64,000 nt of DNA from Elusimicrobiota bacterium (GCA_027371715.1 DAHXMM010000005.1:133750-197749), one strand, 5' to 3'. Shown: positions 3,891 to 55,349, counted from the stretch's first letter. The notes: generated by a model not told the origin, from the sequence alone. Numbers and translations are program-made.

Positions 3891-3924
3891 GGGATTATCT
3901 TTTATATTCTATCAAACCAAGGGC

Positions 3925-5797: not shown

Positions 5798-5820
5798 CTG
5801 ATGATAATGTAAGACCCCGC

Positions 5821-7623: not shown

Positions 7624-7645
7624 TGAAAAAGAAAAACCATTTTTC

Positions 7646-10593: not shown

Positions 10594-10626
10594 GGCGAAA
10601 TGTTAGCAAAATTTGCCTTGAGTTTT

Positions 10627-29851: not shown

Positions 29852-29855
29852 TAAA

Positions 29856-30782
29856 TTAGGATTTAACTTGGCGCGCGAGGTCTTGGATAAAAGAATCTTT
29901 AAGGCTGGTGTCTTTGCAAAAAGATTTAAGGCGTTTGGCGTGGGCGCCATTTTCTTGGGCCCAAAAAACGCGCACCTCAAGCCCCTCCGCTTTTATTTCA
30001 GCCAAGGCTCCCAAAGGGGTCGAACACCCGCCGCCCACGGTTTTTAAAAATTCTCTCTCCCACTCAACTGAAATTCGGGTCGGCCCATGATCGAGAATTT
30101 GAGAAAAAAGCCTGAGGTCGTCCTGCGTCCGAGATTCAATCGCCAAGGCTCCTTGGCCGGGGGAGGGGACCATCTGGTCGAGATCAATAAGATGGGCGGA
30201 AGAAATTTCGCGCCCCAATCTTTTGAGTCCGGCTGCCGCCAGGATAATTCCGTCCAAAGATTTTTCTTCCAATTTTTTTAAGCGCGTGTCTACGTTCCCC
30301 CGAAGCGGAAGCACGTTGACTTCTGGGAAAACCATTTTAAGCTGAATTTGCCTTCTTAGAGAAGAGGTTCCAATTGTTTGCCCAGGTTTTATTTCTTTCC
30401 AGGAAATTCCATTTTGCCCGATAAAAATATCTTGCGGGCTTTCCCGTTGGGGATAGGCGAGAATGTGAAGCCCATTTGGGATTTGAGCGGGCATATCTTT
30501 CGCGCTGTGGACCGCTAAATCAATTTCTCCTTTTAATAATCCCTCTTCGATTTCCTTAACAAAAAGGCCCTTGGTTCCTTGAGGAGATAAAGAGGCCTCG
30601 TGCGCTTCTTTGGGAGATTGGTTTTGGAATAAATCTCCAGATGTTTTGATTATGATGATCTCGGTCTCAAGCGAAGGTGAAATTTCTTTAAGGCGGCTCT
30701 CAACCCAACGGCTTTGAGCGAGGGCCAAGGGAGATCCCCGCGTTCCGATTTTAAGCTTCACCCTATCATTGTAGAAAATCAT
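29856..30782 (-). CDS. hemC: hydroxymethylbilane synthase (porphobilinogen deaminase)
   Basis: KIGTRGSPLALAQ, GNVDTRLKKL and GGCSTPLGA blocks. Confidence 0.9.
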   Translation of the reverse strand: MIFYNDRVKLKIGTRGSPLALAQSRWVESRLKEISPSLETEIIIIKTSGDLFQNQSPKEAHEASLSPQGTKGLFVKEIEEGLLKGEIDLAVHSAKDMPAQIPNGLHILAYPQRESPQDIFIGQNGISWKEIKPGQTIGTSSLRRQIQLKMVFPEVNVLPLRGNVDTRLKKLEEKSLDGIILAAAGLKRLGREISSAHLIDLDQMVPSPGQGALAIESRTQDDLRLFSQILDHGPTRISVEWEREFLKTVGGGCSTPLGALAEIKAEGLEVRVFWAQENGAHAKRLKSFCKDTSLKDSFIQDLARQVKS

Positions 30783-40393: not shown

Positions 40394-40406
40394 TTCTAAA
40401 AACAAT

Positions 40407-40444
40407 GGGCGTGTAGCTCAGCTGGGAGAGCGCCTCGTTCGCAA
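40407..40444 (+). repeat. attL: orphan 5' half of tRNA-Ala (positions 1-38, ending in the anticodon loop)
   Basis: GGGCGTGTAGCTCAGCTGGGAGAGCGCCTCGTTCGCAA is identical to 55174-55211. The sequence diverges completely after 40444. TATAAT at 40389-40394 lies 12 nt upstream. Confidence 0.9.
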
Positions 40445-40445
40445 T

Positions 40446-40493
40446 GGGAAAAGCCCGATTCCCCGGTTTTTTGTCCGGCCTTGACTGATTCGG
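40446..40493 (+). repeat. left copy of a ~48-nt imperfect direct repeat (21-nt perfect core 40464-40484)
   Basis: GGGAAAAGCCCGATTCCCCGGTTTTTTGTCCGGCCTTGACTGATTCGG versus 41309-41357. The shared core is CGGTTTTTTGTCCGGCCTTGA. Confidence 0.85.
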
Positions 40494-40675
40494 TTTCTCG
40501 ACGAGAAATCACTAAAATTCATTTTTTGGGCTTTGCTGGATTTTTCCCGTTTTTGACCCCGGATGGACACTATTTGGACACCAAACTTTTGGCGTCTTTG
40601 TCCGCCAAGCCAAGGCGATAAAGTGGTAAAATAATTTTGGGTTAAAAGAGGGGACGTTCGGAAAGTGGAAATGGT

Positions 40676-40978
40676 ATGAATGCGAAAAGCGGCGAACAAA
40701 TACTTGACGTCATCGGCAAAAATAAGAAAACTCTCGAACGGTTGGGGGTGAAGCGCCTTGGGCTTTTCGGCTCGTTCGCCGCGGGCCGAGGCGGCCCGGA
40801 TAGCGATCTTGATTTTCTAGTCGAGTTCGAGCGCAAATCCTTCGATTCCTATATGGATCTTAAGTTTTTTCTCGAGGAAACATTCGAGCGGCCGGTCGAT
40901 CTAGTTTGTCCCGAGGCCATAAAGCCGCGGCTGAAACGCGATATTCTAAACGCGACTCTTTATGTCCAGGGATTATAG
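40676..40978 (+). CDS. MNT-type nucleotidyltransferase (antitoxin of an MNT/HepT pair)
   Basis: GLFGSFAAGRGGPDSDLDFLVEF is the GS...DxD minimal nucleotidyltransferase motif. 100 aa. Overlaps the next gene by 17 nt. Confidence 0.85.
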   Translation: MNAKSGEQILDVIGKNKKTLERLGVKRLGLFGSFAAGRGGPDSDLDFLVEFERKSFDSYMDLKFFLEETFERPVDLVCPEAIKPRLKRDILNATLYVQGL

Positions 40979-41303
40979 AGTCTACCTGGAGGATATGCTG
41001 GAGGCGACCCGTAAGATATCGGCCTATATTAACGGGAATTCCGAGAAATGGCACGAAGATGAAAAAACCAAGGACGCCGTTTTGCGGAACCTCGAGTTGA
41101 TAGGAGAAGCGGCGAAAAATATTCCCGAATCCATACGCGGTAAGAACCCGCGAATAGATTGGAGAAAGCTGGCCGGGCTTCGAGATATTCTCATCCATCA
41201 ATATTTCGGCATTGATGACGAAATCATATTGGATATCGTCCGAAACAAAATTCCAACCTTAACGGTTCATCTGCGCGAGGCGTTGAAAAACATCTCTCCT
41301 TAG
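40962..41303 (+). CDS. HepT-like (DUF86) HEPN-domain RNase toxin
   Basis: HEPN Rx4H motif in GLRDILIHQY. 113 aa. Paired with the upstream MNT gene. Confidence 0.85.
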   Translation: MSRDYRVYLEDMLEATRKISAYINGNSEKWHEDEKTKDAVLRNLELIGEAAKNIPESIRGKNPRIDWRKLAGLRDILIHQYFGIDDEIILDIVRNKIPTLTVHLREALKNISP

Positions 41304-41308
41304 CCTCT

Positions 41309-41357
41309 TGGAAAAACCCGGTTTCGCGGTTTTTTGTCCGGCCTTGATTGCTTTCGG
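41309..41357 (+). repeat. right copy of the ~48-nt imperfect direct repeat (core 41327-41347)
   Basis: TGGAAAAACCCGGTTTCGCGGTTTTTTGTCCGGCCTTGATTGCTTTCGG begins 6 nt after the HepT stop. Confidence 0.85.
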
Positions 41358-41403
41358 AAAAAAAGACAATGTTGTTGTAAAATAATCCATCTTAGGCATA
41401 GTT

Positions 41404-42195
41404 ATGAGCGAATGGAACTTGGCAATTTGTGAAACAAACCAAATTAACATACACTACGTAAGGACCGGAGGAAACAAACCTCCTTTAATTTTGCTGCATG
41501 GGTTAACCGCGAACGGGGCCTGTTGGACTTCCGTGGCGCAGTCTCTGGAAGGAGAATATGATGTAATTATGCCTGACGCTCGAGGTCATGGAAAGTCGAG
41601 CGCACCTATCGACGGATACCGATACGAAGACCATGTAAACGACATAGAGGGTCTTATTCACTCTCTCAGGTTATCTCATCCGATTGTGATCGGCCATTCC
41701 ATGGGAGGCATGACTGCGGCTTTTCTGGCTTCTCGTAAGAGCAGGCTTCTTCGGGGTCTAGGCTTAGTTGACCCCACTTTTTTGAATCCACAAGTTCAGC
41801 GCGAGGTTTATGAAAGCGATGCGGCCGAACAGCATCGACGACTTCTTAGCGAGTCTCCGGAAGAAACTCTAGCGGAAGCGCGGACTAAACATCCACAGCG
41901 CTCATTAGAAACCCTAAAATTAATCGCCGAAGCACGGCATCAAACGAGCATAAGCGCCTTTCAAGTTCTTATGCCGCCAAACCCAGAGTATAAGCAATTA
42001 GTGAGCGCCATTGACGTTCCCAGCCTGCTCGTGATTGCTGAGAAGGGAGTGGTTTCGCAGGCGGTAGCTGAAGAGCTGCGCGGCCTTAGTCCGAGACTTT
42101 ACGTAGAAAAAATCATGGGAGCCGGCCACGGTGTCCATTATGATCAACCCGAGCAATTCGCAGACGTCATTCAGTCCTTCTTGCGTGCGATTTAA
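41404..42195 (+). CDS. alpha/beta-fold hydrolase
   Basis: LLHGLTANGACW, the nucleophile elbow GHSMGG, and a C-terminal GAGHGVHYDQPEQF. Confidence 0.8.
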   Translation: MSEWNLAICETNQINIHYVRTGGNKPPLILLHGLTANGACWTSVAQSLEGEYDVIMPDARGHGKSSAPIDGYRYEDHVNDIEGLIHSLRLSHPIVIGHSMGGMTAAFLASRKSRLLRGLGLVDPTFLNPQVQREVYESDAAEQHRRLLSESPEETLAEARTKHPQRSLETLKLIAEARHQTSISAFQVLMPPNPEYKQLVSAIDVPSLLVIAEKGVVSQAVAEELRGLSPRLYVEKIMGAGHGVHYDQPEQFADVIQSFLRAI

Positions 42196-42695
42196 CTCTT
42201 CGCGGCCGAGGAGCTGATCTCGCTTCTTTCCCGTCCTTTTAACTCCGATGCCGAAGCGGCGCTTAAGAAGGGCCGCGCTTCGGGCTCATAGGCCGTGAAA
42301 TGCTCTCGGGTATTGATCTCGATCTTAAGACGCATGGGCGCGATCGGAGATATCTCCGACTCCATTCTGTAGCGCAGCGTGACATTGTCGGAGTTGTTCT
42401 CGCGTCGAGGCTTCCCCAAGACAGGGTCGAGTCGGGCGCGGATGGCGCTCATGACCGGCCCGATTGACTCGGACTTTATCTGAACGAGGTCAATGTCCTC
42501 CGAGTAGCGATGCGGCGTTTTAACCAAAAGCTTGTGCAGCGCGGTGCCGCCGCGCAGAAGAAGGGACTTAGACAACAGCGGATCCTGAAATATTTCGGTC
42601 AGCGCGCGAGAGAGAATCAGGTCCTGCTCGACTTGGGCGTCCTGCGGCCAAGGCGCAATGCCGCGCCAATGCGTGATCGCGGCCTCGGGAATCAT
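42192..42695 (-). CDS. AbiEii/DUF1814-type nucleotidyltransferase toxin, apparently C-terminally short
   Basis: LLLRGGTALHKLL...RYSEDIDLV motif. ATG 42693-42695 overlaps the AbiEi stop (ATGA). Only ~167 aa, and the last ~30 aa are Ser/Ala-rich and not family-like. The 3' end overlaps the convergent hydrolase gene by 4 nt. Confidence 0.6.
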   Translation of the reverse strand: MIPEAAITHWRGIAPWPQDAQVEQDLILSRALTEIFQDPLLSKSLLLRGGTALHKLLVKTPHRYSEDIDLVQIKSESIGPVMSAIRARLDPVLGKPRRENNSDNVTLRYRMESEISPIAPMRLKIEINTREHFTAYEPEARPFLSAASASELKGRERSEISSSAAKS

Positions 42696-43486
42696 GCCTC
42701 GGGCTCGGGGTTTGCGTTGATCCAGAGCCGCCACTTCCGGCTCTCCAAGTCGGGGAAGGGGGCGGCGGGGTCAAGCGGACGCAACGGCGCGTCCTTGACC
42801 CAATCGGCGAGTTCCTTGGACAGGTCGCGGCGTCCGATTTTATCCAGAAGATAGCCGAGCCGCTGCGCCACGATCATTTCGCCGTGCGCTTTGACGAGTT
42901 TCTTAAGTTTCGCGGCGTCGATTTTTTCCGCCAGCTCGGACAGGATGGTCACGACGTGATCAAGCCCTCCCGCGACCTTGAAGTAGCGCACGAGGTCCCA
43001 GGCTGTTGTCTCGGGAGTCGAGACCCGCATGAAGCCTGTCGGAGTTTTCACATCCTGGGTCTGCGCGCGCTCGAAAGGCCCCTTGCCGTGAAAGCGGATC
43101 GAGACGTTGCCTGAACGCACCGGCCGCGCCGCGCGCTCCGGGATTATGACCTGGAACTCCTGGGGGCGGTGGTGCGCCGCGCCGTGAACCTGCGCCGCCG
43201 ACAACAACCCGACATAGTAAGGACGGCCCATGTCCTTCATCATCTCGTGGATGAACCATTCGGCCGGCAGGGTGCCGACGGCCCGATGCTGCGCATCGAC
43301 CACGACGTAGAAACCCGAACGCGGCATGGCCAGACCTCGGGCGTTCACCAGACGATGCAGGGACATATAAGTTGCATTGCGGGAGCGGCCGAGCTTGCGG
43401 GCCGCCTCTTCGCGGGTGAAGGTGTAGCGGCCCTGGCCAAGCAGCTCCTCGACAAAGCGTCCGGCCTTCAGAAAAGGGTTTTTCAT
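42692..43486 (-). CDS. AbiEi-family (type IV TA) antitoxin / transcriptional regulator
   Basis: N-terminal wHTH pattern GRYTFTREEAARKLGRSRNATYMSLHRLVNARGLAMPRSGFYVVV and a COG5340-like C-terminal domain. Translationally coupled to the AbiEii gene. Confidence 0.7.
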   Translation of the reverse strand: MKNPFLKAGRFVEELLGQGRYTFTREEAARKLGRSRNATYMSLHRLVNARGLAMPRSGFYVVVDAQHRAVGTLPAEWFIHEMMKDMGRPYYVGLLSAAQVHGAAHHRPQEFQVIIPERAARPVRSGNVSIRFHGKGPFERAQTQDVKTPTGFMRVSTPETTAWDLVRYFKVAGGLDHVVTILSELAEKIDAAKLKKLVKAHGEMIVAQRLGYLLDKIGRRDLSKELADWVKDAPLRPLDPAAPFPDLESRKWRLWINANPEPEA

Positions 43487-43657
43487 TCCGGTATCAAATT
43501 ATAACGGATTTCGTAATATTCCGCAACCGATTTATAGAATGACTTTGATCCATTCCAAACAGGGATGAACCCATTTAGTTTTTTCAACGAAAACGACTGC
43601 GGGAGAACAACCTTAAATCAAGTCCAGAGTGGTCGGACAAACCGGGAGCGCCTCAGC

Positions 43658-44608
43658 TTACTTGTATTTGGCGCTTTCTTTCAGCCAGGCGATCAGCTCT
43701 TGCCCCATTATCTTTCGACGATGGACTTCGTCATGGTCTACATTGCATAAGGTGACAAGGTTTTCGGGCTCGTGTCCTCCGCCCAAATGATGATAAACGA
43801 CATGGTGGACTTCCAGGAATTGCCGCTTGCCCGCCGGATTGCGGTCCGACTGAGACCATCCGCAGCGGCGACACTTGTAGGCGTCCCGATCCAAGACTTG
43901 ATCGTAAACAAGATCGGGAATGCTGCGGTCGTGCTCGGGAAGCTGTTGTTCGGATTCGAGCACATAGACGCCGGCGGGCAGATCAGGGCGGCCAGTCTGC
44001 TTCGTGACGATTCTCCATCCTAATTCCCGCCGCAATTCCCGAATGCGCCGTGCCGTCTCGCGGATGCCGGATACGTAGGCAAGTTGTTCTCCCGTAATGG
44101 GACTCCCCACGTATGCCTTAAGAAGCGCAAGTGCCCTATTCCGGGCGTTGCCGCCCTGTCGTTTGATCCGGTTTACCGTTCCCCACTTCTTGGCGGCCTC
44201 TTTGTCGGGCACGGTGCTCTCAAGCACGTATTGATCAGGTCTCAAGTCTTCGCGCGAATAGCCGGTCGATACGTTGTATCCGAATTGAACCCTCAGTTCG
44301 CGGATTCTCCGAGCGAACTCCTGAATGCCGCCGACGATTTGCAATTCGGCGCCATCTATGATTTCGCCCGAGAACAACTTGAGGTAGGCAAGGATTCTGT
44401 CGCGGGCAGCGGATGTCGTGGTCAACCGTCCAAGCCGCATTTTCGCCAGAGCGCGCAAATCTGTCATTATTTTCGCAAGCTTTCGCACTTCGGCCCGGAT
44501 TTCAGCGCGGCGGGTCGGAGGACTGGACGGAATGTCGGATAATAAGTCCCTCAATTTCGTTATCGCGAGGTCATTACCGCTTTTGGATCGATTTTTCAAT
44601 TTCGCCAT
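43658..44608 (-). CDS. HNH endonuclease with two tandem wHTH-like repeats; candidate restriction endonuclease
   Basis: C-terminal CRRCGWS...FLEVHHVVYHHLGGGHEPENLVTLCNVDHDEVH (HNH/His-Me finger with CxxC). Preferred start is ATG 44606-44608 (MAKLKNRSK). The track ORF begins at GTG 44710. Confidence 0.7.
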   Translation of the reverse strand: MAKLKNRSKSGNDLAITKLRDLLSDIPSSPPTRRAEIRAEVRKLAKIMTDLRALAKMRLGRLTTTSAARDRILAYLKLFSGEIIDGAELQIVGGIQEFARRIRELRVQFGYNVSTGYSREDLRPDQYVLESTVPDKEAAKKWGTVNRIKRQGGNARNRALALLKAYVGSPITGEQLAYVSGIRETARRIRELRRELGWRIVTKQTGRPDLPAGVYVLESEQQLPEHDRSIPDLVYDQVLDRDAYKCRRCGWSQSDRNPAGKRQFLEVHHVVYHHLGGGHEPENLVTLCNVDHDEVHRRKIMGQELIAWLKESAKYK

Positions 44609-44691
44609 AAAACAAATTCTACTTCTTCTTAACCTTAAAGCAAACTCTCTTGACGGAACTTTTTCCGAGGAAAATCGTATGTATATATAGG

Positions 44692-44745
44692 GGTTGACAG
44701 TTAGTTGCACGAAGGTTGACTAAAGTAATCAACCTCTGCTAGAAT
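44692..44745 (+). promoter_or_regulatory. sigma70-like promoter with operator-like repeats for the methyltransferase gene
   Basis: TTGACT (44716-44721), N18, TAGAAT (44740-44745). GGTTGAC occurs at 44692-44698 and 44714-44720, and the inverted repeat AGGTTGA-N9-TCAACCT (44713-44719 / 44729-44735) straddles the -35. Confidence 0.5.
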
Positions 44746-44766
44746 CTTGTCTTGGGAGGGCTTCCA

Positions 44767-46203
44767 ATGAGCGATAGATTGGGCGGTATATTGAGGAATC
44801 TGCGCAAGCAGAAAGGAATAGGGCTAAAGCAGTTGTCAAAAACCCTAAAGGTGGACCGGGCGCACCTCAGTCGAATAGAATCCGGGAAGGTCGTTCCCTC
44901 GGACGTCCTGCTCCGCCGGATCGGCCGCCGCTTGGGCGGAGATATGGAACTTCTGACCATCCTTGCGGGCCGTCTTCCGAAAGATATTCAGAATTTGTTC
45001 ATCGAGAAACCGAAGGAGGTCGTGTCCTATTTACGGCAAGTCGCCGCGTTTAATGGGCATAGCTTGTTCGCGGAGAACGGCAACGGCTTTCATCCTAACG
45101 GGCGCCGGAAATACCGCGTGATCGATCTGTTTTCGGGAGCCGGCGGCTTTACTCTCGGCCTCGCCAAGACCGAACGGTTCGAGCCCGTCTTTGCCAATGA
45201 CTTTAACCGTTTTGCAGTGGATACCTATAACCATAACTTCGGCGATCACTGCGTCGGCGGGGATATCAATGCTCTGCTTGAGCATCGCGATCTGAAGTTG
45301 CCTGCCGCCGATCTGGTAGTAGGGGGGCCGCCGTGCCAGGGTTTCAGCTTGTTGAACAAGAAACGCGAGGGAGATCCTCGAAAAGAGCTTTGGCGCGCGT
45401 ATATGACGGTAGTGGAGCGGGTGAAGCCGCTTGCGTTCGTAATGGAAAACGTTCCCGAATTGCTTCCCTCCCAAGAATTCGCGGAGATTCGAAAGATATC
45501 GGCGAAGATGGGTTATCAATTGGATTACGCGGTCTTAAACGCCGCCGACTACGGCGTTCCGCAACGCCGCCGCAGAGCCATCGTCATCGGATGCAGAGTT
45601 GCAAAGCCCAAGTTGCCGCTTCCGACGCATTTCAACCCGGCAAAGAGCGACGATCTCTTCAGGACCGGTCTCCTTCAGTGGGAATCGGTTGGACGGGCTA
45701 TCGGAGACCTCCCCGATCCGGAAGGCATTGAGGTACGCGTCGGCGAGGTCAATCCGCCGATGGACCTGCATTTCGGCCGCACTCCTATGCCGTCGAGCCT
45801 CCAAAGATATCGTTGCATCCCCGAGGGGGGAAACCGATTCGATCTCCAAAAAAAGCGTCTTGACCTCACTCCCAAATGTTGGATCAGGAAAAAATCGGGC
45901 GGGACGGATTTGTTCGGGCGTTTGTGGTGGGACAAGCCGGCGTTTACGATCCGCACCGAGTTCTTTAAGCCCGAAAAGGGGAGATACCTGCATCCGCGGC
46001 AGCATCGGCCGATCACTCATCGCGAGGCGGCGAGACTCCAGAGCTTCCCCGACGATTTCATTTTCCGGGGAACAAAAACGGAAATCGCCCGTCAAATCGG
46101 CAATGCGGTCCCTCCGCTTCTCGGCCGTCGCATCGGCGAAGCGGTCGCGGCAACTTTAGATTCGGCGAGCGTCTCGATATATACCGAGACCGTCGTTGCT
46201 TGA
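44767..46203 (+). CDS. DNA (cytosine-5) methyltransferase with an N-terminal XRE-type HTH
   Basis: HTH LRKQKGIGLKQLSKTLKVDRAHLSRIESGK. Motif I DLFSGAGGFTLG, motif IV GGPPCQGFS, motif VI FVMENV, motif VIII QRRRRAIVIG, motif X QIGNAVPP. GGGAGGG lies 6 nt upstream of ATG 44767. Confidence 0.9.
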   Translation: MSDRLGGILRNLRKQKGIGLKQLSKTLKVDRAHLSRIESGKVVPSDVLLRRIGRRLGGDMELLTILAGRLPKDIQNLFIEKPKEVVSYLRQVAAFNGHSLFAENGNGFHPNGRRKYRVIDLFSGAGGFTLGLAKTERFEPVFANDFNRFAVDTYNHNFGDHCVGGDINALLEHRDLKLPAADLVVGGPPCQGFSLLNKKREGDPRKELWRAYMTVVERVKPLAFVMENVPELLPSQEFAEIRKISAKMGYQLDYAVLNAADYGVPQRRRRAIVIGCRVAKPKLPLPTHFNPAKSDDLFRTGLLQWESVGRAIGDLPDPEGIEVRVGEVNPPMDLHFGRTPMPSSLQRYRCIPEGGNRFDLQKKRLDLTPKCWIRKKSGGTDLFGRLWWDKPAFTIRTEFFKPEKGRYLHPRQHRPITHREAARLQSFPDDFIFRGTKTEIARQIGNAVPPLLGRRIGEAVAATLDSASVSIYTETVVA

Positions 46204-46211
46204 CGGCATAA

Positions 46212-46658
46212 ATGGCGGATATTTTCTCGAAGAAAAAACGTTCCGCCATTATGGCGTTGATTCGAAACAAACATACCGCACCTGAGAAGGCTCTCAAGCG
46301 GCGGCTGCGCGCACAAGGCGTTAGATACCGCAGTCAGTGCTCGCGCCTCCCCGGCACTCCCGATATCGTTTTGCCGGAGGCCAAGGTCGCCGTGTTTATT
46401 AACGGATGTTTTTGGCACGGACACAAGGGCTGTCGCCGGAGCAAGCTTCCGACTACGAACGTCAAGTTCTGGAAGCGTAAGATTGCAAAGAACGTCGCGC
46501 GGGATCGCGCCGTAACGCGGAAGCTCAGGGCGATGGGTTGGAAGGTGAGGGTTTACTGGACGTGTAAAAGGTTGTCCGAGGTTGTTCCCGTCGTGGCGCG
46601 GGCAAATTATTCCAAGGCGCATAACCCCGGAAGCGGGGACGGCCAACGGTCGCCATGA
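46212..46658 (+). CDS. vsr: very-short-patch repair endonuclease
   Basis: Close in pattern to E. coli Vsr: MADIFSKKKRSAIM..., LPGTPDIVLPEAKVAVFINGCFWHGH, FWKRKIAKNVARDR, GWKVRVYWTC. Confidence 0.9.
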   Translation: MADIFSKKKRSAIMALIRNKHTAPEKALKRRLRAQGVRYRSQCSRLPGTPDIVLPEAKVAVFINGCFWHGHKGCRRSKLPTTNVKFWKRKIAKNVARDRAVTRKLRAMGWKVRVYWTCKRLSEVVPVVARANYSKAHNPGSGDGQRSP

Positions 46659-46713
46659 GGAAGGCCTGATATCCGCCGCAACTCAGATTCATATTTTTGA
46701 ATTGAGGCAAAAG

Positions 46714-47355
46714 TTAGGCTTTGTCTTCAATGACAAATTGATTGACAGGGACTTCCCCGGCAACTTCCAAGAACTTTCCGATGTCTGTGAAGAATAGCAA
46801 TTGCGCTGTTCCAATTTCGCTCTGCAGATGGGGATGAAGAATGCCGCCGGACTCTTTGGCGCAATATGCGGTACGATCATTGGAAATAAACGCAGTGTCC
46901 ACATTCTTATTCCGGACATGATTCCGCACGCTTAGCCAAATCGTCCCATCTCGAAATCCGTTTCCCTTCACGTCGAACGGCGGTAGGCGTTTGATTGCTC
47001 GATTCTGAAGGTCCTCCAAGGCACCAGCTCCCGGATTTGGCAAGAATCGAACTCGTCCTTGAATTAGAAGTTCCTCCCAGCGAGCGAGATAGGCAGGGGC
47101 GTCGGTTTCACCAGAAGGTAATTCGACCTCGATTTCTTGTCCTATTAAGCGTCCCAGCTTCGCTGCGGCGGATACAATATTACCTCGATATTTGTCGCAA
47201 TGCTGCAAGTGGTTCGAGATGCATTCCTTCTTGACCACCTCCGGCACTAGCATGACGCAGCTAGATTTTTTAAGGTGTGTCCACAGCTGCTGCCAAATCT
47301 GTGACCTCATCATGGGGTCAGAAAAGATTATGTTGCTGTCGACGATGATATCCAC
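46714..47355 (-). CDS. PIN-like nuclease-fold protein (DUF4935-type); third gene of the orphan operon
   Basis: MDIIVDSNIIFSDP (N-terminal acidic DxN), LVPEVVKKE, GNGFRDGTIWLSV and AFISNDRTAY follow the PIN-like pattern I associate with DUF4935. The GTG start (47353-47355) overlaps the upstream TAG by 1 nt. Confidence 0.6.
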   Translation of the reverse strand: MDIIVDSNIIFSDPMMRSQIWQQLWTHLKKSSCVMLVPEVVKKECISNHLQHCDKYRGNIVSAAAKLGRLIGQEIEVELPSGETDAPAYLARWEELLIQGRVRFLPNPGAGALEDLQNRAIKRLPPFDVKGNGFRDGTIWLSVRNHVRNKNVDTAFISNDRTAYCAKESGGILHPHLQSEIGTAQLLFFTDIGKFLEVAGEVPVNQFVIEDKA

Positions 47356-50300
47356 TAGATCTCGGCCTCGACCTCTGCGTCTTCGCGTCGAGCTTGTTTG
47401 GTATAGTAGGTTGCGATGCGCTGGAGAACTGTTGCCGTCCTCGGCCAGCGGGACTGTGCCTTCAAAGCGTAGGCTTCATATCGCTTTGCCAGTTCGCGCT
47501 CCTGCCGTCCTCCGTCAGTCGGAGACTTGTAATAGATGCCGCGTTTGTTGATAATTCCCGTCCTCAGACCCTGCTCAATATCTGTAGAATTCGCTTCTTC
47601 TAGGATGTCGCGAACGGGCTGGCAGGGCCACGAACCATCAGAATCTTCCTGAGCATAGGCAAAGACCTTTCCAATCATGATGTCGCATACTTCGATCCGG
47701 TCGACTTCCGTAGCCTTTTTCCGGGCCTCTCGGACCCAAGTTAAAAGCGCGGGGGTATCAACAGAGCCGTCGTCTCTTGCGCCCGGTAGTCGCTTCCAGT
47801 CGCCAAGCAGAATGGCAGCCCGCTGAACCTGTTCTTTCTTATCCTCTGGCAGCTCGACATCTTTGCTCTTGTCTCGGTGTTTTGGTAGGAAGTTAAGAAT
47901 CAACATGTCGACGAAGAACGCCGGATCATGGGAGAGTTTGTGTTCAAGCGCGCGTGGGACCATCTGTCCGCGTAGACCCGGCAACAGCAACCACTCGAGC
48001 GTCGCCATCCGCGAGCCGTCGACATCTCTCGCATTCTGCAACTCTCCAAAAACGTCCTCGACCATCGACGCGTGCAACGGCCGCCTCTCTGTCGATAAGG
48101 TTTGGAGCGTCAGTTCAAATAGGTCGAGGAGCTTGGGGCCGGGCAGAGCGACTTTCCGCGTCGTGGCCATGCCAAGCACATCGAGCGCGGAAGCCGAACG
48201 TCCGACCGACACGAGTTTCCGGACGATGTATTCGACATCATCCGGCCCGCCTTGGACGAACGGCCGGGCCATGCACCAATACTCTGCTTCGACGGACTCC
48301 CCTAGGGTGGCGACGAACTCCCAGGTAGCCTTTTCATGCGGAAGGAACTCCAAAACAATAGCGGCCTGCTTCGGCTTCCAGCCACTCAGGGGTAACCCCT
48401 TTATCCAATCCCACCCGCCTATTGATGCACGGCGCTCCGCGAATCCCCGCGCAAATCCCTCCAGGGGAGAATCACCGCAATCGAGAAGTGTGGGGAGAAT
48501 CTCGGCGTCGTACTTGTCGGCGGCGGCATCGACGAGCGCGACTCCAACGGCCCAGGGCTCGCCTGCCGAGCGCGCCAGATTCTTAACAGACTCATACCCG
48601 TGTTGCTGGACCAACTCCTTGACGCATTCTGCTCGTCGCTTCCGAGTCAGAGCCTCTTGGTCCGACCAAGACAAGGAGTCATCGCCAATGAGGTCCAATC
48701 CATTTTTAAATAGAGGCAGGGCACGCTCGACCGGATCAGCAGGCTTGAATAGATTGACAATCACCTCAAGTCGCTCAAGAACCGGTTGCCTGATCGCCCA
48801 CATGGCTTTCTTAAAGTATCTGTGGCGCTGAACCTCCTCCCTGAGGCCGAGCCAAATCTTTAGGCGCAACTCTCCAGGAAGTTCCAGTTTGGCCGTGGCT
48901 TCCATTGCAGAAATTGCGCGCTCAAGTTCCGCTGGTGGATAGTTGGCAAAGTGTTTGAAGATGTCAAGCCACTTCTCGGGCTCTTTTTCGCTAGCCGCGA
49001 TCGCTTTGTTTATGTAAGTGATTGTCACGCGGGAGTAGTCTCCACGGGTCACGTTGCGCTTCCACTTTTCGGCCCAATACCTCCATTCAGGTAGGGAACG
49101 GCCAGAGATCGTGCCCATTTGTTCCGGCAGCAGTTTCAACAACAGTTGCCAACCGACCTTCGGGAAGCGCTCGAGGAGCAACCCAACAACATCCACCTGT
49201 TGATCGGGCGTCGCAGTGGTGTGGGGCAACCATGGGCAAAATATATCCCTCAGGCTCGCGTCCGGCCGGTTTGCCCATTTGCCGCCGGGATCGCGTTGCG
49301 CGAGGTGAGCCAGCACAATGGCGGCTCGGGTCAAATGTTCAGGAGCCCAAGCGACTCTCTCGAGCGCCCACAGGATCCCGGTATGCTCGGGACGACCCGT
49401 TAAGCTATCGCCTTCTTCGGCGAAGAGTTTGGGTAGTTGAGGATCCGCGCTTCCCAAATCGATCTCGGCGACATGGAGAAAGATATCGGGGGCAGCCTCG
49501 GCGAGCGTCGATAGTAAGTGCCCTAGGGATGCCCACCGTCGCCATGAGGCATCTTTGGTTAAGATGATTCGCACCGTGCGGCTGACCCTGTCGCACAACG
49601 GCATCGTGTCGGCGACCTGCTCGTTGGACTCGCGTGTTGCAAGTAAGGCCAAACTCTGGGACAAGCCACGGCGAATAGCCTCGGAATGCGGGAGTAGCTT
49701 GCCATGCACACTGGCCATCCAGCGATCCTCTCGCTCCAACTCTAGGCGCGGATCGTCTGCCGCTAGTGCTGCCACAGCGGCGTCTTCAAACGCGGACAGA
49801 TGCCCAGGTGTCAGGGCCTTCGCCAAGAATTTCCACGCGTCTTGGGCCGAGACAAATTCCCATTCGCCGTTCGCCCACCGCACGGGGGTATCGGCTTCCT
49901 CTCTCCACTTGTTTAGCGTCTTGAGCACATCCGCGTATGGCCGCCCAGAAACCTTCTCAACGATCGCCTGGTCGGCTACCGAGCTATCCTCCCAGGCGCC
50001 TACCAGCAGTAAGGGGGCAAGTTCTGTTGCAGCATCGCCTGAAGTCCACTTGGGAGCCTTTATGTTTGGGACGGTGGACATCTGGCGCTTCAGGATCGAG
50101 AACGAGCCACCCGAGTGCTGAGCGCTCACATGGGCCTCTTGTTCCGACATACCTGATTCGCTCAGAACTTTCTCGAGTTCGTATCGGTTCATCCTCTCGA
50201 GTTTATGGGTTTGCCTCCCATCGGGGGACAAGGCAGAGAGCGGGGACAGGACGAAATGCCCTTTGCGATCGGCTTCCGCCAGCAATTCCTGCGATAACTC

Positions 50301-51122
50301 GAGCTGTTCCGCCCGGATTAGGATCAAATCTTGCCCCGAGTCTAGTAGCTGTCGCCATGAATCGGCCTGTTCAACGATGATCGCGCGGCTTGCCACCGTA
50401 GCCTGCTGTTCTCCCGAAAGTGAAGCTACCCAGGCAGCGAAAACGTCTACGACCTCCTGAGGCGACTCAGCTCGAATTGAAAGGAAGTTGGGCTTTTGGC
50501 TCAACCAGTCCTTAATCGCGCTGACAGTCGACGTGCGTGAGACTAATAGTGCCTGTGGAGGCAGGAGGGGCTTCATACTCGCCTGCAGATTGTTCCAATG
50601 CGATGAGATATCAGTGAGACCGGACGCGTTCCTACCGAGGAGGCGCATGAACCACAGAGCCACGCTCGGAGACTCTTCAATCCACTGTTCAAGATCGTTC
50701 GAGTCATACACTCGTACGTCTTGCCAAAGCCCAAGATTCTTCTTCTCCTCAGTCCATTCGTGCTTCTTCTGAAAATCTCTTGGTGTGACGGCGATGTAGG
50801 TAGAAGTAACTGCCTCGGCGTTGTTCTTGGTCCTCTTTTCAAAGTCGCTTTCGAGCTTCTCTCGAATCGCTTTGTCGGTTCCAAGCTCCCAAAAAGAGGA
50901 GCCCGATGGCACCTTGGAACTGCCACTCTTCGCCTTCGTCCGCCCGTCAAACCCTGGACGCTGGGCCTCCTCACCGCCAAGAAAGTCGATTAGCTCGAGG
51001 TCGGCCTTCGGAATTGAAACGTGGATTAACCGACGGACAAGTTCCGGGAAGCGAGTTCGCGCGTCGACCGTATCGGCCCAGCGATTCAACTCGACTGCGG
51101 ATATCCATTTAGGGTGTTGCAT
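47355..51122 (-). CDS. 1255-aa protein of unknown function; second gene of the orphan operon
   Basis: Uninterrupted ORF in GC-rich DNA. No Walker A (GxxxxGK[ST]), HNH, HEPN or other catalytic signature found by eye. Predominantly Leu/Ala/Glu/Arg/Trp-rich helical-looking sequence. The N-terminal ~170 aa is a distinct module. Confidence 0.75.
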   Translation of the reverse strand: MQHPKWISAVELNRWADTVDARTRFPELVRRLIHVSIPKADLELIDFLGGEEAQRPGFDGRTKAKSGSSKVPSGSSFWELGTDKAIREKLESDFEKRTKNNAEAVTSTYIAVTPRDFQKKHEWTEEKKNLGLWQDVRVYDSNDLEQWIEESPSVALWFMRLLGRNASGLTDISSHWNNLQASMKPLLPPQALLVSRTSTVSAIKDWLSQKPNFLSIRAESPQEVVDVFAAWVASLSGEQQATVASRAIIVEQADSWRQLLDSGQDLILIRAEQLELSQELLAEADRKGHFVLSPLSALSPDGRQTHKLERMNRYELEKVLSESGMSEQEAHVSAQHSGGSFSILKRQMSTVPNIKAPKWTSGDAATELAPLLLVGAWEDSSVADQAIVEKVSGRPYADVLKTLNKWREEADTPVRWANGEWEFVSAQDAWKFLAKALTPGHLSAFEDAAVAALAADDPRLELEREDRWMASVHGKLLPHSEAIRRGLSQSLALLATRESNEQVADTMPLCDRVSRTVRIILTKDASWRRWASLGHLLSTLAEAAPDIFLHVAEIDLGSADPQLPKLFAEEGDSLTGRPEHTGILWALERVAWAPEHLTRAAIVLAHLAQRDPGGKWANRPDASLRDIFCPWLPHTTATPDQQVDVVGLLLERFPKVGWQLLLKLLPEQMGTISGRSLPEWRYWAEKWKRNVTRGDYSRVTITYINKAIAASEKEPEKWLDIFKHFANYPPAELERAISAMEATAKLELPGELRLKIWLGLREEVQRHRYFKKAMWAIRQPVLERLEVIVNLFKPADPVERALPLFKNGLDLIGDDSLSWSDQEALTRKRRAECVKELVQQHGYESVKNLARSAGEPWAVGVALVDAAADKYDAEILPTLLDCGDSPLEGFARGFAERRASIGGWDWIKGLPLSGWKPKQAAIVLEFLPHEKATWEFVATLGESVEAEYWCMARPFVQGGPDDVEYIVRKLVSVGRSASALDVLGMATTRKVALPGPKLLDLFELTLQTLSTERRPLHASMVEDVFGELQNARDVDGSRMATLEWLLLPGLRGQMVPRALEHKLSHDPAFFVDMLILNFLPKHRDKSKDVELPEDKKEQVQRAAILLGDWKRLPGARDDGSVDTPALLTWVREARKKATEVDRIEVCDIMIGKVFAYAQEDSDGSWPCQPVRDILEEANSTDIEQGLRTGIINKRGIYYKSPTDGGRQERELAKRYEAYALKAQSRWPRTATVLQRIATYYTKQARREDAEVEAEI

Positions 51123-51143
51123 TGGCGAACCCGCTTGTTGGCT

Positions 51144-51782
51144 TTATGCCAAACGAAGCCAAGTGTTGCAGACCGGGCAACGAAACATATTCATGCCTTG
51201 CGGGTGGTGCATCTGAAACGACGATCGGCACTTCCCGCATAGAATTGTCTGGCCCACGGGGCGTTGCGACGCTTTGTTGGAAAGGATTGCGCCGCCAACC
51301 GCTCCTATGACCGCGCCTCCGGGACCGCCCATAAGCGCCCCTGCGCCCGCTCCGGCCGCCGCGGCGGCCAAGACATTTGAATCATCGTAGGACTCGATCA
51401 CCTTCATAATGTAGGCCAAGAAGTTATCATTCTGCGCAAGGACTACGTAGTGCCGCAGGTGCGGCGTGACAACGGAAATCTGCCCCTGTTCGACTTGCTG
51501 TTCGAAAACCCAGATGTCTTTGTTCCCGCTACTCGCAACGCCCGATTCCCAGACAACCCAATCTCGGGTGTAGGGCGTCCGCTCGACGTTTCCGCTGAGC
51601 AGGATGAACGCAGCGTTGGAAAACTGAATATCCTGCTGGATCTTAGTCGTGTTTACGCTGTCGGCAATCAACTTCTCAAGCTCTTCAAATACAAGCTTGA
51701 CCTTGGTCGTGGCCCCAGCTTTCGCGAAAAAGTTGACAAGATCGCGGTCCTTTGCGCTGTGCGAAACAAAAATTTGTGCCAT
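51144..51782 (-). CDS. TIR-like domain protein with a glycine-zipper segment and C-terminal zinc ribbon; first gene of the orphan operon
   Basis: ATG 51780-51782 is preceded by GGAGG (8-nt spacer). MAQIFVSHSAKDRDLV (the FxSHSxxD start typical of bacterial TIR/DUF1863), ...AFILLSGNVERTPYTRDWVVWESGVA (conserved Glu position), AAAAGAGAGALMGGPGGAVIGAVGGAIL (Gly zipper), CGKC...x16...CPVC (Zn ribbon). Confidence 0.6.
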   Translation of the reverse strand: MAQIFVSHSAKDRDLVNFFAKAGATTKVKLVFEELEKLIADSVNTTKIQQDIQFSNAAFILLSGNVERTPYTRDWVVWESGVASSGNKDIWVFEQQVEQGQISVVTPHLRHYVVLAQNDNFLAYIMKVIESYDDSNVLAAAAAGAGAGALMGGPGGAVIGAVGGAILSNKASQRPVGQTILCGKCRSSFQMHHPQGMNMFRCPVCNTWLRLA

Positions 51783-52237
51783 TCGTGTTACCTCCAAGAG
51801 GATGTCCCGCTCTTATCTTAGTTGAAAGCTGTTGAGGCGAGATTTTCATTCTAACTCATTCGTTTGTTTACTGTCCAGTTTCTCTTTGGGAAAGAGTTTT
51901 GACGAGAAACGGCAGGAGCTTGTGCCCCTTGGTACTGCGCCACGATTTCTCCGCCGCGCAAGCTTTTCGCTTGATGCGTCTTTTCCTGCACGAAAGCAAA
52001 TGGCGACTCGGGCGGATTAGTTGTTCTCACGCTCAACTTTATCGGAACCTTCAAGCGGTGAAGTGTCAGTTTTTCCTTTAGTCCCTCATACAAACTCGCC
52101 ACCAACGGATTGATCCGTTCTGATGAGAGTGTAAAAAAAACAAGGTGTTTTTTTAACACTACTCAGGCCCTTCTACCCGGGACAAAATTCCGCTTCCAAC
52201 ACAACGGAAAGCTTCCATTGAGCGTTATTTTAAGATT

Positions 52238-52267
52238 TTCAAATGAAACACTATCGTTTCATTTGAA
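52238..52267. promoter_or_regulatory. 12-bp perfect inverted repeat (operator-like) in the island's longest non-coding gap
   Basis: TTCAAATGAAAC-ACTATC-GTTTCATTTGAA (52238-52249 / 52256-52267), ~130 nt upstream of the RHH-like ORF. No flanking T-run. Confidence 0.5.
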
Positions 52268-52396
52268 GATGTCTTAAAACCCTCGATTTGCCCGTTTTCC
52301 CTCTGAGAAGCCCCATCCGGCTGAAATTTTGGACTTGGCATAAAAATCCATACCAAGAACCGGAAGCTGAATACCGAAATGAAGGGGGAAAAAATC

Positions 52397-52681
52397 ATGG
52401 ACGCGCAGATGACTCAGATGGAAATAGACGGAAGATTGGAGGCCGAGGAAGCCGAATTCTTGGACCAACCGGGCCGGACTGAGGGCAAGAACCTGAAGCC
52501 TTCCCGCTACATCAAGATGCAGAACTTCATCCTGATCAAGGACATCGTAACCTTGGACGAGATTCGCTTGAAGTTCATGAAACAGGGGCAAGACATCAGC
52601 CGCGAAAGGCTTCTGTCGGAGGCCATACGCTCACTCTCCAAGGAAGTTTCCTCAGGGAAATTCGAGCTCAAAAATCCATGA
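52397..52681 (+). CDS. small protein, possibly a ribbon-helix-helix DNA-binding protein
   Basis: ATG 52397 is preceded by AAGGGGG. The C-terminal half RYIKMQNFILIKDIVTLDEIRLKFMKQGQDISRERLLSEAIRSL resembles the RHH beta-alpha-alpha pattern (..SRsellreAI..). Confidence 0.4.
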   Translation: MDAQMTQMEIDGRLEAEEAEFLDQPGRTEGKNLKPSRYIKMQNFILIKDIVTLDEIRLKFMKQGQDISRERLLSEAIRSLSKEVSSGKFELKNP

Positions 52682-52922
52682 AGCTCGGAAAAACCTGCGT
52701 CTGTCGCTGTATCTGTTCTTGCAGACATGGGCGGAAAACCGGAGAACTTCAAAAATGAGCGATATTTCCGGTCTTTTTTCGCCCGCCTCTTTGGCGAAAA
52801 GGCCGCCAAAGCCTCCTGACCACACCCCCACAACCACATTAAAAATTGTGGTCAACAGTGGTGCTGTGGTCAGGAGGACGGCGGGGTTTGGGGCGGGAAA
52901 TATCTTGTGGGAGAGGAGATAA

Positions 52923-53786
52923 ATGAAGGAAGAAAGGGTCAAGATTAGTGTCTGTTATGAAGGGGAAACGTCCGAGTTTGAGATTAGAAGAACGGGGTTG
53001 AGGGTCTTGAGAGGTCTGGAGAAATGGGGAATTTTAAGCCTGCCTCAGATCGAGGGATTGGCGTTCAACGGGGGTTCGGAAAAGGAAAAGCTGGATTTAT
53101 TTTTTAACGGAAGCTTTGAGGACGAATACCGGGGAGCGAGCTACAAGGTCCTGGAACGGCTTGAAAAGCGGGGGCTTGCGAAGCATCATCGCCATATCAA
53201 TGCGCCGAGGGTTTACGCGCTGACACGGGAAGGTCATAAGGCATTGGAAGAGGCCGGCATGGCCAGGATTGGGGATTATCGGGAGATGATCTCAGACTTC
53301 ATGGTCAAGCATGAGCTCTTGGTTTCAGGGATTGGACTCGTCATGAGCGAACTCTTGGGGCTTCGGGTCTCAACCGAGTTCGAGCGTCAGGTTCTAAGCC
53401 GAGGCCATGCGGGGGATTTTCCTTTACCGGATTTATGGATTACGGACGCCGAACAACCAAAGGCGGTCGAGGTCGAGAGAAGCCTCAAATCAGCCGCACG
53501 ATACCGCAAACTCTGGGAGTTTTACCGGGCCAACTTACCCGGACCGGCGGTTGTTCTCTACATCGCGGCTTTCCCGAACGGAACAAAACTCCTCTTGTCC
53601 CGCGCGCGCAAGTTCATGGCTGATTTCATTTATGTCTGCGATCTTATGGAGTTCAAGTCGTCCTTGGGACGAGGTCCTTTCGTGGGGTATAGGGGCGACG
53701 AGATTTATTTAGGCAAGCCGGAAGAATCCCTGCTGGAACCCCTGTTCCGTCCTGAAGAATCCCTTGTGGGAGTCCGCCCTTATTGA
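52923..53786 (+). CDS. replication-relaxation family-like protein
   Basis: N-terminal wHTH-like LRVLRGLEKWGILSLPQIEGLAF...YKVLERLEKRGLA, HELLVSGIGL, and LPDLWITDAEQPKAVEVERSLKS (PDx...ExExx pattern recalled for Replic_Relax). GAGGAG lies upstream. Confidence 0.45.
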   Translation: MKEERVKISVCYEGETSEFEIRRTGLRVLRGLEKWGILSLPQIEGLAFNGGSEKEKLDLFFNGSFEDEYRGASYKVLERLEKRGLAKHHRHINAPRVYALTREGHKALEEAGMARIGDYREMISDFMVKHELLVSGIGLVMSELLGLRVSTEFERQVLSRGHAGDFPLPDLWITDAEQPKAVEVERSLKSAARYRKLWEFYRANLPGPAVVLYIAAFPNGTKLLLSRARKFMADFIYVCDLMEFKSSLGRGPFVGYRGDEIYLGKPEESLLEPLFRPEESLVGVRPY

Positions 53787-53796
53787 GGAGGAAAAC

Positions 53797-54036
53797 ATGA
53801 CAACAAACGAAACCGACGCCGTAATGGAAGATGAACGCGCAACTACCTTGGAGAAAAGATTTCTCCGAATCGAGGAATTGTCGGAGTATATGGGAACCCC
53901 CGTGGCCACGCTTTATACCTGGACGCATCAGAAAAAAATTCCGCATCTTAAGATGGGACGTTCGGTGCGCTTTGACTTAAGAGAAATAGAAGCGTGGCTG
54001 AAAGAAAGGCGCGTGGGGGTTTCATCCTTTGCGTAA
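53797..54036 (+). CDS. excisionase / AlpA-MerR-type HTH DNA-binding protein
   Basis: ATG 53797 after GAGGAGG. FLRIEELSEYMGTPVATLYTWTHQKKIPHLKMGRSVRFDLREIEAWL is the typical excisionase HTH pattern. Lies immediately upstream of int. Confidence 0.75.
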   Translation: MTTNETDAVMEDERATTLEKRFLRIEELSEYMGTPVATLYTWTHQKKIPHLKMGRSVRFDLREIEAWLKERRVGVSSFA

Positions 54037-54097
54037 ATTGTCGCGGAAAAGGATGACGGCGGATGGAACTTTTTCGGGAGTTTTGAGTAAGTAAGGT

Positions 54098-55165
54098 ATG
54101 GGACTCTTCAAAAAAGGCGAGAGCTGGTATATCGACTATTACCATGGAAGACGCCGGAAGCGGGAGAAAATCGGCCCCTCCAAAACCCTGGCCAAGGAAG
54201 TTTTGCGAAAGCGGCAAGCCCAGGGGGCGGAGCGGCGATTTTTCCCCGAACGACAACAACAGTCCATCGCCTTTTCGCAAGCCGTTGAGAAATATTGGAA
54301 ACTGGAAGGGCAATATTTAAAGGCCAAGGGCATTCGCTCGGTTTTCGAGGCGTTAAAGGTCAAGTTTGGGGGCCGCAGGCTTTCGGATATCGCCGTTTCG
54401 GACGTTCAGGAGATTTATAACAAAAAGGCGGAAGAGACCTCTGCTTCAACGGCGAACCGCTTAATCGCGTTTCTTTCCCCGGTGTTTAACCGCGCCAAGG
54501 ATTGGGGAGATTTCCTCGGGGAAAATCCCGCCGAGAAAATCCGCCGCAGGAAGCCCGGCAATCATCGCCTGAGATTTCTTGAAGAGGAGGAAATTCGGAG
54601 GCTTTTTCTTGCCTGTTCCGCTTCGATAAGGCCGATCCTGTCGTGCGCCGTTTTGACGGGAATGCGGAAGGGAGAAATATTGGGACTAAGCTGGGAGAAC
54701 GTGGATTTGGAGCGCAACATCATTTTCATTCTTAAATCGAAATCGGGAAAGGCGCGGGAAATCCCGATAGGCGGGAAATTAAGGGAAGTTTTTTTGGCAT
54801 TGGGACCGCAGGCCCAGGGCTCCGTGTTCGATGTGCCGGAAATTACGCTTCGCCGGAGATTCTTTTCGGCGCTCAAAGATGCTAAAATAGAAATGTTCAG
54901 GTTCCATGACTTGCGACACACTTTCGCCAGTCATTTTGTCATGAAAACGGGAGATTTGCCGACTTTGCAGAAAATATTGGGTCATTCTTCGCCTCAAATG
55001 ACGCAACGCTACGCTCATTTGGCGAAGGGGCACTTGGCCGCGAAGATGGAAAAATTTGATTCGTCCATGCCTATCGAATCTTTAGATTTGCCGAGAGATG
55101 GACACTATTTGGACACCAGCTCCAAAATAGAAGTTTCAAAAATCGAGAAAAACGCTTATAAGTAA
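54098..55165 (+). CDS. int: tyrosine-type site-specific integrase
   Basis: Catalytic blocks TGMRKGEILGLSWENVD (Arg I), HDLRHTFASH (HxxR) and LGHSSPQMTQRYAHL (His, then nucleophile Tyr). The stop is 8 nt before the tRNA. Confidence 0.9.
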   Translation: MGLFKKGESWYIDYYHGRRRKREKIGPSKTLAKEVLRKRQAQGAERRFFPERQQQSIAFSQAVEKYWKLEGQYLKAKGIRSVFEALKVKFGGRRLSDIAVSDVQEIYNKKAEETSASTANRLIAFLSPVFNRAKDWGDFLGENPAEKIRRRKPGNHRLRFLEEEEIRRLFLACSASIRPILSCAVLTGMRKGEILGLSWENVDLERNIIFILKSKSGKAREIPIGGKLREVFLALGPQAQGSVFDVPEITLRRRFFSALKDAKIEMFRFHDLRHTFASHFVMKTGDLPTLQKILGHSSPQMTQRYAHLAKGHLAAKMEKFDSSMPIESLDLPRDGHYLDTSSKIEVSKIEKNAYK

Positions 55166-55173
55166 AGGATTTT

Positions 55174-55246
55174 GGGCGTGTAGCTCAGCTGGGAGAGCGC
55201 CTCGTTCGCAACGAGGAGGTCGCAGGTTCGATCCCTGTCACGTCCA
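55174..55246 (+). tRNA. tRNA-Ala (anticodon CGC), intact; its 5' 38 nt form attR
   Basis: Acceptor stem GGGCGTG/CACGTCC with G3:U70, D-arm TAGCTCAGCTGGGAGAGC, anticodon stem-loop CCTCG-TTCGCAA-CGAGG, T-arm GGTTCGATCC, discriminator A. CCA is not encoded. Confidence 0.9.
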
Positions 55247-55349
55247 CGTTTTTCATTGATGAGTCCTGAAAGACGCCTCAGTCAAGAATGCGCTCTGGCT
55301 TCTATAAAATCGCGGCGGCGAAATCCGGTTAGGCCGCATCCAAAAAATT

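Follow-up and report, generated by a model that had tools for sequence, protein, structure and literature searches.

A 1255-residue Avs8-related protein without NTPase motifs from an Elusimicrobiota island and its very large unnamed family

The gene described here occupies the minus strand at 47355..51122 of a 64,000-nucleotide stretch of DNA from an Elusimicrobiota bacterium (GCA_027371715.1, DAHXMM010000005.1:133750-197749), referred to below as the window, with positions counted from its first letter. It encodes a protein of 1255 amino acids (aa), which is homologous over nearly its full length to Avs8 and in which the nucleotide-binding motifs of the STAND nucleoside triphosphatase (NTPase) superfamily are not found. 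Its family is very large and unnamed, and within it the protein is an ordinary full-length member. It is likely that it acts as a single-polypeptide Avs-type antiviral pattern-recognition receptor, its relatives constituting a large sister family of Avs8. Avs8A, the new name of PD-lambda-4A, is a STAND NTPase that carries an Mrr nuclease at its N-terminus; after binding HK97-fold major capsid proteins it degrades DNA (10.1101/2025.07.02.662641; PMC13581612). The nuclease residues of Avs8A are required for defence (bioRxiv 10.1101/2025.07.02.662641).

Homology to Avs8 and extent of the family

The open reading frame (ORF) is intact from its ATG start through 1255 codons, and its translation contains all the peptides quoted in a preliminary description of this DNA. 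The protein matches no Pfam or NCBIfam family at E≤0.1, and comparison with PDB sequences gave nothing significant. In a regular-expression scan of the protein, G-x4-GK[ST], the relaxed form [AG]-x4-GK[ST], DE[AVILCS][DH], R-x4-H, HExxH and CxxC were all absent. The preliminary description was right that Walker A, DEAD/DExH, HNH and HEPN-type R-x4-H motifs are missing; it had also denied any HxxxH, and here it overlooked one, HKLSH at 1061. The enrichment in L, A, E, R and W that it noted agrees with the residue percentages (11.6, 10.6, 8.4, 7.3 and 3.4%, respectively).

In searches of defence-system libraries, the sole match of the protein is to the PADLOC model PD-Lambda-4_A. It is a local match of 63 residues (aa 136-198; 21 bits, E=1.3e-5), collinear within a profile of similar length, and it was repeated in 4-5 of 19 family members. 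For direct comparison, the E. coli protein EcAvs8A (WP_000963924.1, 1283 aa) was found in E. coli genomes via the published cloning primer (7285-11136 of the stretch concerned), and nine further Avs8-like proteins were taken from plasmids of Enterobacter, Phaeobacter, Bacillus cereus, Burkholderia, Legionella, Leptospira, Thalassobaculum, Nostoc and Rhizobium. BLASTP aligns aa 33-193 with residues 56-196 of EcAvs8A at 26% identity (E=3e-5). A hidden Markov model (HMM) built from 174 aligned full-length family representatives, the set to which the conservation counts below refer, matches 120 Avs8A proteins, the best at about 35-37 bits and in two collinear pieces. An HMM-HMM comparison, as had been suggested earlier, was run with hhalign between the 174 family sequences and the ten Avs8-like ones, and the two groups matched with Prob 99.5% and E=7e-23 over 1019 columns, residues 7-1135 being collinear with residues 6-1168 of EcAvs8A. 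This collinear alignment, taken with the BLASTP and family HMM results, establishes the nearly full-length homology to Avs8.

The possibility that the ORF is a fusion or a misassembly, raised in the preliminary description, did not hold, because it aligns collinearly with over 170 homologues, 1250-1270 aa long, and because the identical protein is also on record from an independent metagenome contig. A word-indexed homologue search returned only 46 relatives, unnamed and of ~1255-1265 aa, and the family wrongly looked rare. An exhaustive search with a profile of aa 1-640 gave 6311 protein clusters at E≤1e-3 and 3784 at E≤1e-30 (clusters counted at 50% identity), and when one genome per species was scanned, at least 597 species genomes contained relatives. 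The family is scattered across most bacterial phyla and some archaea. It was found in Elusimicrobiota, Planctomycetota, Acidobacteriota, Actinomycetota, Chloroflexota, Bacteroidota, Bacillota and Campylobacterota, in all classes of Pseudomonadota, and in archaea such as Methanosaeta. None of the relatives matches Pfam or NCBIfam. Twenty-four plasmids carry a member, annotated as “hypothetical protein” or “helix-turn-helix transcriptional regulator”, and an extra N-terminal XRE-type helix-turn-helix (HTH) is present in 44 of the 174 representatives.

Predicted domains and their conserved residues

All parts of the gene discussed in this section lie, like the gene itself, on the minus strand. 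As judged from alignment with Avs8, residue conservation and structure prediction, the N-terminal ~165 residues (aa 1-165; 50628..51122) are a divergent Mrr-type effector domain of the PD-(D/E)xK fold, homologous to the Avs8 nuclease. When this head was modelled alone (aa 1-178), AlphaFold2 gave a predicted local distance difference test score (pLDDT) of 94.5. The topology assigned to the model by DSSP (helix 19-36, strands 42-47, 60-64 and 74-80, helix 86-100, strand 108-112) contains the alpha-beta-beta-beta-alpha-beta core of restriction-endonuclease-fold enzymes. The best PDB match in Foldseek is FokI (E=0.03, prob 0.9, TM 0.44-0.48), with further matches to EcoT38I, the nuclease domains of Can2/Cdn1, EndoMS, Mus81/XPF, BsoBI and Cap4. 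In BFVD, phage proteins named “Restriction endonuclease” were matched (E=8e-4 to 2e-2, prob 0.99-1.0). These matches are singly weak, yet they agree on the restriction-endonuclease fold, to which nearly all of the top-ranking nucleases belong. The head shares with Mrr_cat and the FokI cleavage domain the same core, an Asp starting strand 2 and an acidic residue in strand 3; unlike them, it does not carry the lysine two residues past that acidic residue. When 52 isolated N-terminal domains of the family were compared with Pfam at E≤10, the matches were scattered chance ones and none was to Mrr_cat (PF04471), and EcAvs8A likewise has no Mrr_cat match at E≤0.01.

The residues of the head that are most conserved in the family are D59 (codon 50946-50948) and E79 (50886-50888), both invariant in 174/174, followed by K89 (50856-50858; 172/174), R97 (172/174) and D93 (170/174). 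The last three are spaced i, i+4, i+8, as a conserved row along the helix that follows the E79 strand. In the alignment to Avs8, D59 corresponds to D55, the Asp of DGGID, E79 to Q78, the Gln of QxK, and G81 to K80. A first, low-diversity hhalign alignment had set E79 opposite Avs8 E92; in the deeper alignment this placement was replaced by Q78, which is preferred because it fits the strand positions. At the canonical lysine position the family has Gly (126), Ser (46) or Thr (2), so the canonical Mrr motif D...(Q/E)xK is not found, and the conserved lysine K89, new with respect to Avs8, stands ten residues after E79. Compared with Avs8, then, the nuclease triad is rewired, with the D59/E79 pair kept, the lysine lost and a K89-D93-R97 row present on the next helix. 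Since D59, E79 and K89 are invariant or nearly so, a working active site is favoured over a relic. The preliminary description had proposed an N-terminal Mrr-like module with D59, E79 and K84 as its key residues. The PD-(D/E)xK core in the model and the profile-profile placement on the Mrr-type domain of Avs8A agree with the module and, as seen above, the two acidic residues were well chosen, and its doubt about a clean (D/E)xK was justified; K84, present in only 57/174, has to give way to K89.

A linker (aa 166-195; 50538..50627), lying within the PADLOC match and covered by the BLASTP one up to aa 193, leads from the head to a conserved (G/S)R196 (R196 in 167/174) in front of the central module. 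That module, aa ~196-480, is predicted to be a NOD of the STAND type, and the alignments show that both of its Walker motifs, A and B, are lost across the whole family. In the larger AlphaFold2 model (aa 1-640; pLDDT 90.5, predicted TM-score 0.85), its first part, aa 196-310 (50193..50537), takes up a nucleotide-binding-domain-like alpha/beta fold with strands at 213-218, 247-250, 267-270, 290-296 and 305-307. The second part, aa 311-480 (49683..50192), is helical and winged-helix-like (helices at 313-407, a beta-hairpin at 414-423, helices at 426-469) and contains the invariant residues R346, W359, D384 and S480. Foldseek places the Avs5 filament 9nc9 at the top of the matches of this model (E=1e-5, prob 1.0), other matches including NLRC4, Apaf-1, clamp loader subunits and the NB-ARC of NRC1, and the alignments to STAND proteins exceed 500 columns. 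The model thus contains the nucleotide-binding domain, helical domain and winged-helix core of the STAND superfamily, followed by a repeat sensor, as in Avs1-5, Avs7, NLRC4 and Apaf-1; unlike the present protein, those bind nucleotide through intact Walker motifs. Differences in domain arrangement keep the TM-scores to Avs and NLR proteins low (0.15-0.29).

The decay of the motifs is seen when the family is aligned to Avs8. Walker A, G-x-x-G-x-GK[ST], is found at ~240 in 10/10 Avs8-like proteins and at the aligned position in 0/174 family representatives; the GLSGVGKT of Avs8 is replaced in the window protein by AESPQEVV (aa 218-225; 50448-50471). The Walker B equivalent is the strand LILIRAE (aa 266-272; 50307-50327), whose LILI (aa 266-269) aligns to the ilVvD of Avs8 with no acidic residue after it, and the Asp is missing throughout the 174 representatives. 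Another candidate for the Walker B equivalent, IIVE (aa 248-251), was ruled out by this alignment. Around the former P-loop a conservation specific to the family is observed, at S/T220 (160/174), E223 (160/174), R246 (148/174) and H289 (161/174). The preliminary statement that the protein is without an NTPase is therefore correct for motifs but not for fold and ancestry, and its picture of mostly long helical repeats holds only in part, aa ~196-310 being alpha/beta and NTPase-like in the model.

From aa ~480 onward the alignments indicate a sensor region homologous to that of Avs8 (aa 481-1190; 47553..49682), predicted to be alpha-helical and modelled as far as aa 640. Its most conserved block, LAEAAP...LWALE.LAW...NRP, spans aa 537-620, and the high-confidence hhalign blocks to the Avs8 sensor are 536-650, 690-705, 785-797, 960-990 and 1030-1045. 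The Rhizobium Avs8-like protein aligns with the family HMM across 430 residues of this region. The protein ends in a charged C-terminal tail (aa 1191-1255 and the stop; 47355..47552) with the conserved pattern NKRG...GG.QE...P....Y...A.RED, in which N1192, R1194, G1195, G1204, G1205, E1208, P1227 and Y1240 are each kept in at least 158/174. The tail lies beyond the hhalign match, which ends at residue 1135, and Avs8A has a similar charged end.

In length and in the order of Mrr-type nuclease head, NOD, helical sensor and charged C-terminal tail, the protein resembles Avs8A, and like Avs8A it is encoded by a single large gene of the kind found within mobile defence islands and on plasmids. Its identity to EcAvs8A is only ~19%, however, and the family is reached by the PADLOC PD-Lambda-4_A model only through the short local match. 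It was filed as a sister family of Avs8 and not as Avs8 because it keeps neither the Walker motifs nor the Mrr triad and is captured neither by Mrr_cat nor, apart from the local match, by the PADLOC model.

The island and its neighbouring genes

The gene is carried by an integrative island of ~14.8 kb (40406..55247), delimited from repeats, a recombinase, a tRNA gene and GC content. Perfect direct repeats of 39 nt (40406-40444 and 55173-55211) correspond to the 5' part of tRNA-Ala(CGC). The intact tRNA-Ala gene lies at 55174-55247, and a tyrosine recombinase gene (54098-55165) ends 8 nt before it. GC is raised at 42-52 kb of the window. A second repeat of 22 nt (40562-40583 and 55097-55118) is ordered differently with respect to the 39-nt one, and the island may therefore be composite or a tandem.

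Two small genes flank the large one on the same strand. Upstream, across a gap of 21 nt, lies a gene for a protein of 217 aa (51144..51797, minus strand), whose TIR-like N-terminus matches a ThsB-like PADLOC model with E=4e-7 and Pfam TIR_2 weakly. Its other features are a membrane-like glycine-zipper segment, AAAAAGAGAGALMGGPGGAVIGAVGG, and a zinc ribbon at the C-terminus, CGKC...CPVC. Downstream, a PIN_12 protein of 213 aa (46714..47355, minus strand; Pfam PIN_12 E=9e-15) has a start that overlaps the stop of the large gene; it shows no similarity to Avs8B, the neighbour of Avs8A, and the window gene, unlike Avs8A, has no Avs8B-like partner. A promoter-like site upstream of the TIR-like gene (51848..51877, minus strand), recognised by a 10/12 consensus match only, could be the start of a three-gene transcript. 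The same trio also occurs at a homologue with 78% identity, whereas the TIR-like and PIN_12 genes are absent at 80 other loci, and they are thus lineage-specific neighbours and not conserved partners. When 492 neighbouring ORFs of the 80 loci were clustered, no conserved partner gene was found, the commonest being present at 6/80. Since its neighbours are not conserved, the large gene is probably a single-gene system. Elsewhere, homologues lie beside Qat and AIPR, SIR2, NERD, AbiE, insertion sequence (IS) elements and plasmid partition genes, and also on conjugative plasmids. Such variable neighbours are typical of a defence gene that is self-contained and moves horizontally.

The other residents of the island include AbiEi and a shortened AbiEii, an HNH endonuclease alongside a Dcm fused to an HTH, and an MNT/HepT pair. 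The AbiEii ORF (180 aa; 42192-42734) and AbiEi (42692-43486) are both on the minus strand. AbiEi is full length; AbiEii accounts only for positions 1-142 of a profile of 260, stops at the same place as a convergent alpha/beta-hydrolase gene (41404-42195), and is probably a truncated toxin gene. The HNH endonuclease, which has a winged-helix domain (43658-44710, minus strand), and the C-5 cytosine methyltransferase with an N-terminal XRE HTH (44752-46203, plus strand) are divergent, and the pair looks like a type II restriction-modification module within the island. The MNT/HepT toxin-antitoxin pair (nucleotidyltransferase and HEPN RNase; 40676-41303, plus strand) is flanked by 44-nt direct repeats (40447-40490 and 41310-41353), which are 86% identical and contain a terminator-like hairpin with a T-run. 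Between the PIN_12 gene and the 3' end of the Dcm gene, an ORF of 184 aa (46092-46646, minus strand) is probably spurious, because it has no family match and is of an Arg/Pro/Leu-rich, low-information composition; terminator-like hairpins lie within it. Outside the island, the window carries an mfd gene for the transcription-repair coupling factor (26756-29980, minus strand), whose nearest named relatives are from Elusimicrobia/Elusimicrobiota metagenome-assembled genomes, at 46-56% identity, with other relatives reaching 83%; by this gene the window is assigned to an uncultured member of Elusimicrobiota.

On the Rhizobium gallicum plasmid NZ_CP017104.1, an HTH-fused P-loop-less member of the family (3835-7905 of the extracted stretch) lies directly upstream of a canonical Avs8-like gene (7959-11801) on the same strand. 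The same tandem is found in NZ_CP022669.1 and NZ_CP006879.1. The canonical partner, of 1280 aa, has an intact DGG.D...QCK, a Walker A GASGLGKS and a Walker B LLVVDE, and an AbiEi/AbiEii pair is located divergently upstream of the tandem. By analogy, this arrangement of a dead NTPase with a live one might recall the sensor/helper pairs of plant NLRs.

Possible mode of action and its meaning

If the protein acts as an Avs-type receptor, its mechanism can be proposed by analogy with Avs8. The sensor would wrap a conserved phage protein, perhaps an HK97-fold capsid protein as for Avs8, and this binding would release autoinhibition. The NOD scaffold would then oligomerise without nucleotide, and the nuclease heads, brought together in this way, would degrade DNA and abort the infection. 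Assembly without nucleotide is suggested by the loss of both Walker motifs throughout the family and by what is reported for KpAvs8, an Avs8-type receptor which, compared here by its description only, resembles the window protein in having degenerate Walker A and B motifs; its authors suggest that it has no ATPase activity, yet they present a model of its complex with the phage target (Nature 2026; PMC13581612, legend of Extended Data Fig. 11). Several observations weigh against this proposal. EcAvs8A is reported to require ATP in vitro (bioRxiv 10.1101/2025.07.02.662641), so the nucleotide-free mechanism is an extrapolation. With so low an identity to Avs8, the target could well be another one. 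Nuclease activity of the head is not assured, since the (D/E/Q)xK motif has lost its canonical lysine; the support for its fold from PDB structures is also weak (best E=0.03, TM ~0.45). Finally, the TIR-like and PIN genes that flank the large gene in the window and in its closest relatives could be effectors instead.

A different division of labour, which we consider unlikely, would be one in which the large protein is a sensor and scaffold only, its dead restriction-endonuclease-fold head serves for contacts with DNA or protein, and the TIR-like and PIN_12 proteins do the killing. The Gly or Ser that replaces the lysine family-wide would be accounted for in this way. So would the tight packing of the three genes, with the start of PIN_12 overlapping the stop of the large ORF and the TIR-like gene 21 nt upstream, the position of the sole promoter-like site in front of the TIR-like gene, and the preservation of the trio at the 78%-identical homologue. 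However, the conservation of D59, E79, K89, D93 and R97 in 170-174/174 is hard to explain for a dead site, and a killing role of the two neighbours is difficult to reconcile with their absence from the 80 other loci, where no partner is conserved at all. In the Avs8 system itself, the neighbour Avs8B is dispensable (bioRxiv 10.1101/2025.07.02.662641).

Another proposal concerns the NOD, which might still bind a nucleotide or small ligand via a non-canonical site, the protein then having remained a switch-type STAND receptor. The residues S/T220, E223, R246, H289 and R196, conserved specifically in this family around the former P-loop, are what such a site could be made of, and the ATP requirement of EcAvs8A (10.1101/2025.07.02.662641) points in the same direction. 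Against this, neither the Lys nor the Gly residues of the P-loop remain, the Walker B Asp is missing too, and the acidic E223, aligned to a P-loop Gly, would be expected to repel phosphate; we therefore hold a retained switch to be quite improbable. The names given to relatives in RefSeq suggest still another role, that of a transcriptional regulator or antitoxin: 44/174 representatives carry the N-terminal XRE-type HTH, and one relative is named “HigA family addiction module antitoxin”. Such a name reflects ~70 of 1350 residues, the remaining 1250 aa being homologous to Avs8. Three quarters of the family have no HTH; the window protein is without one too, and for it this role already fails, which makes the role scarcely credible. 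The Avs-type receptor with its own nuclease head thus remains the favoured interpretation.

In STAND and NLR receptors, nucleotide binding is thought to be the switch of oligomerisation. It is possible, though we put it forward tentatively, that the window protein is the founding example of a huge clade of STAND-derived immune receptors in which nucleotide binding was abandoned and the nuclease active site rebuilt. If this is true, with the NOD scaffold, the sensor and the effector site all kept without Walker motifs, then the nucleotide switch would be dispensable in STAND/NLR receptors, and NLR-like receptors could be switched by ligand-driven assembly alone. The family would be a natural system in which to study activation by ligand only, and its rewired D/E/K89 site one on which to test how active sites migrate in PD-(D/E)xK nucleases. 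For thousands of genes now named “hypothetical protein” or “HTH transcriptional regulator”, the annotation could be changed to Avs8-like defence receptor, and PADLOC, as presumably also DefenseFinder, would gain a family that is now missed.

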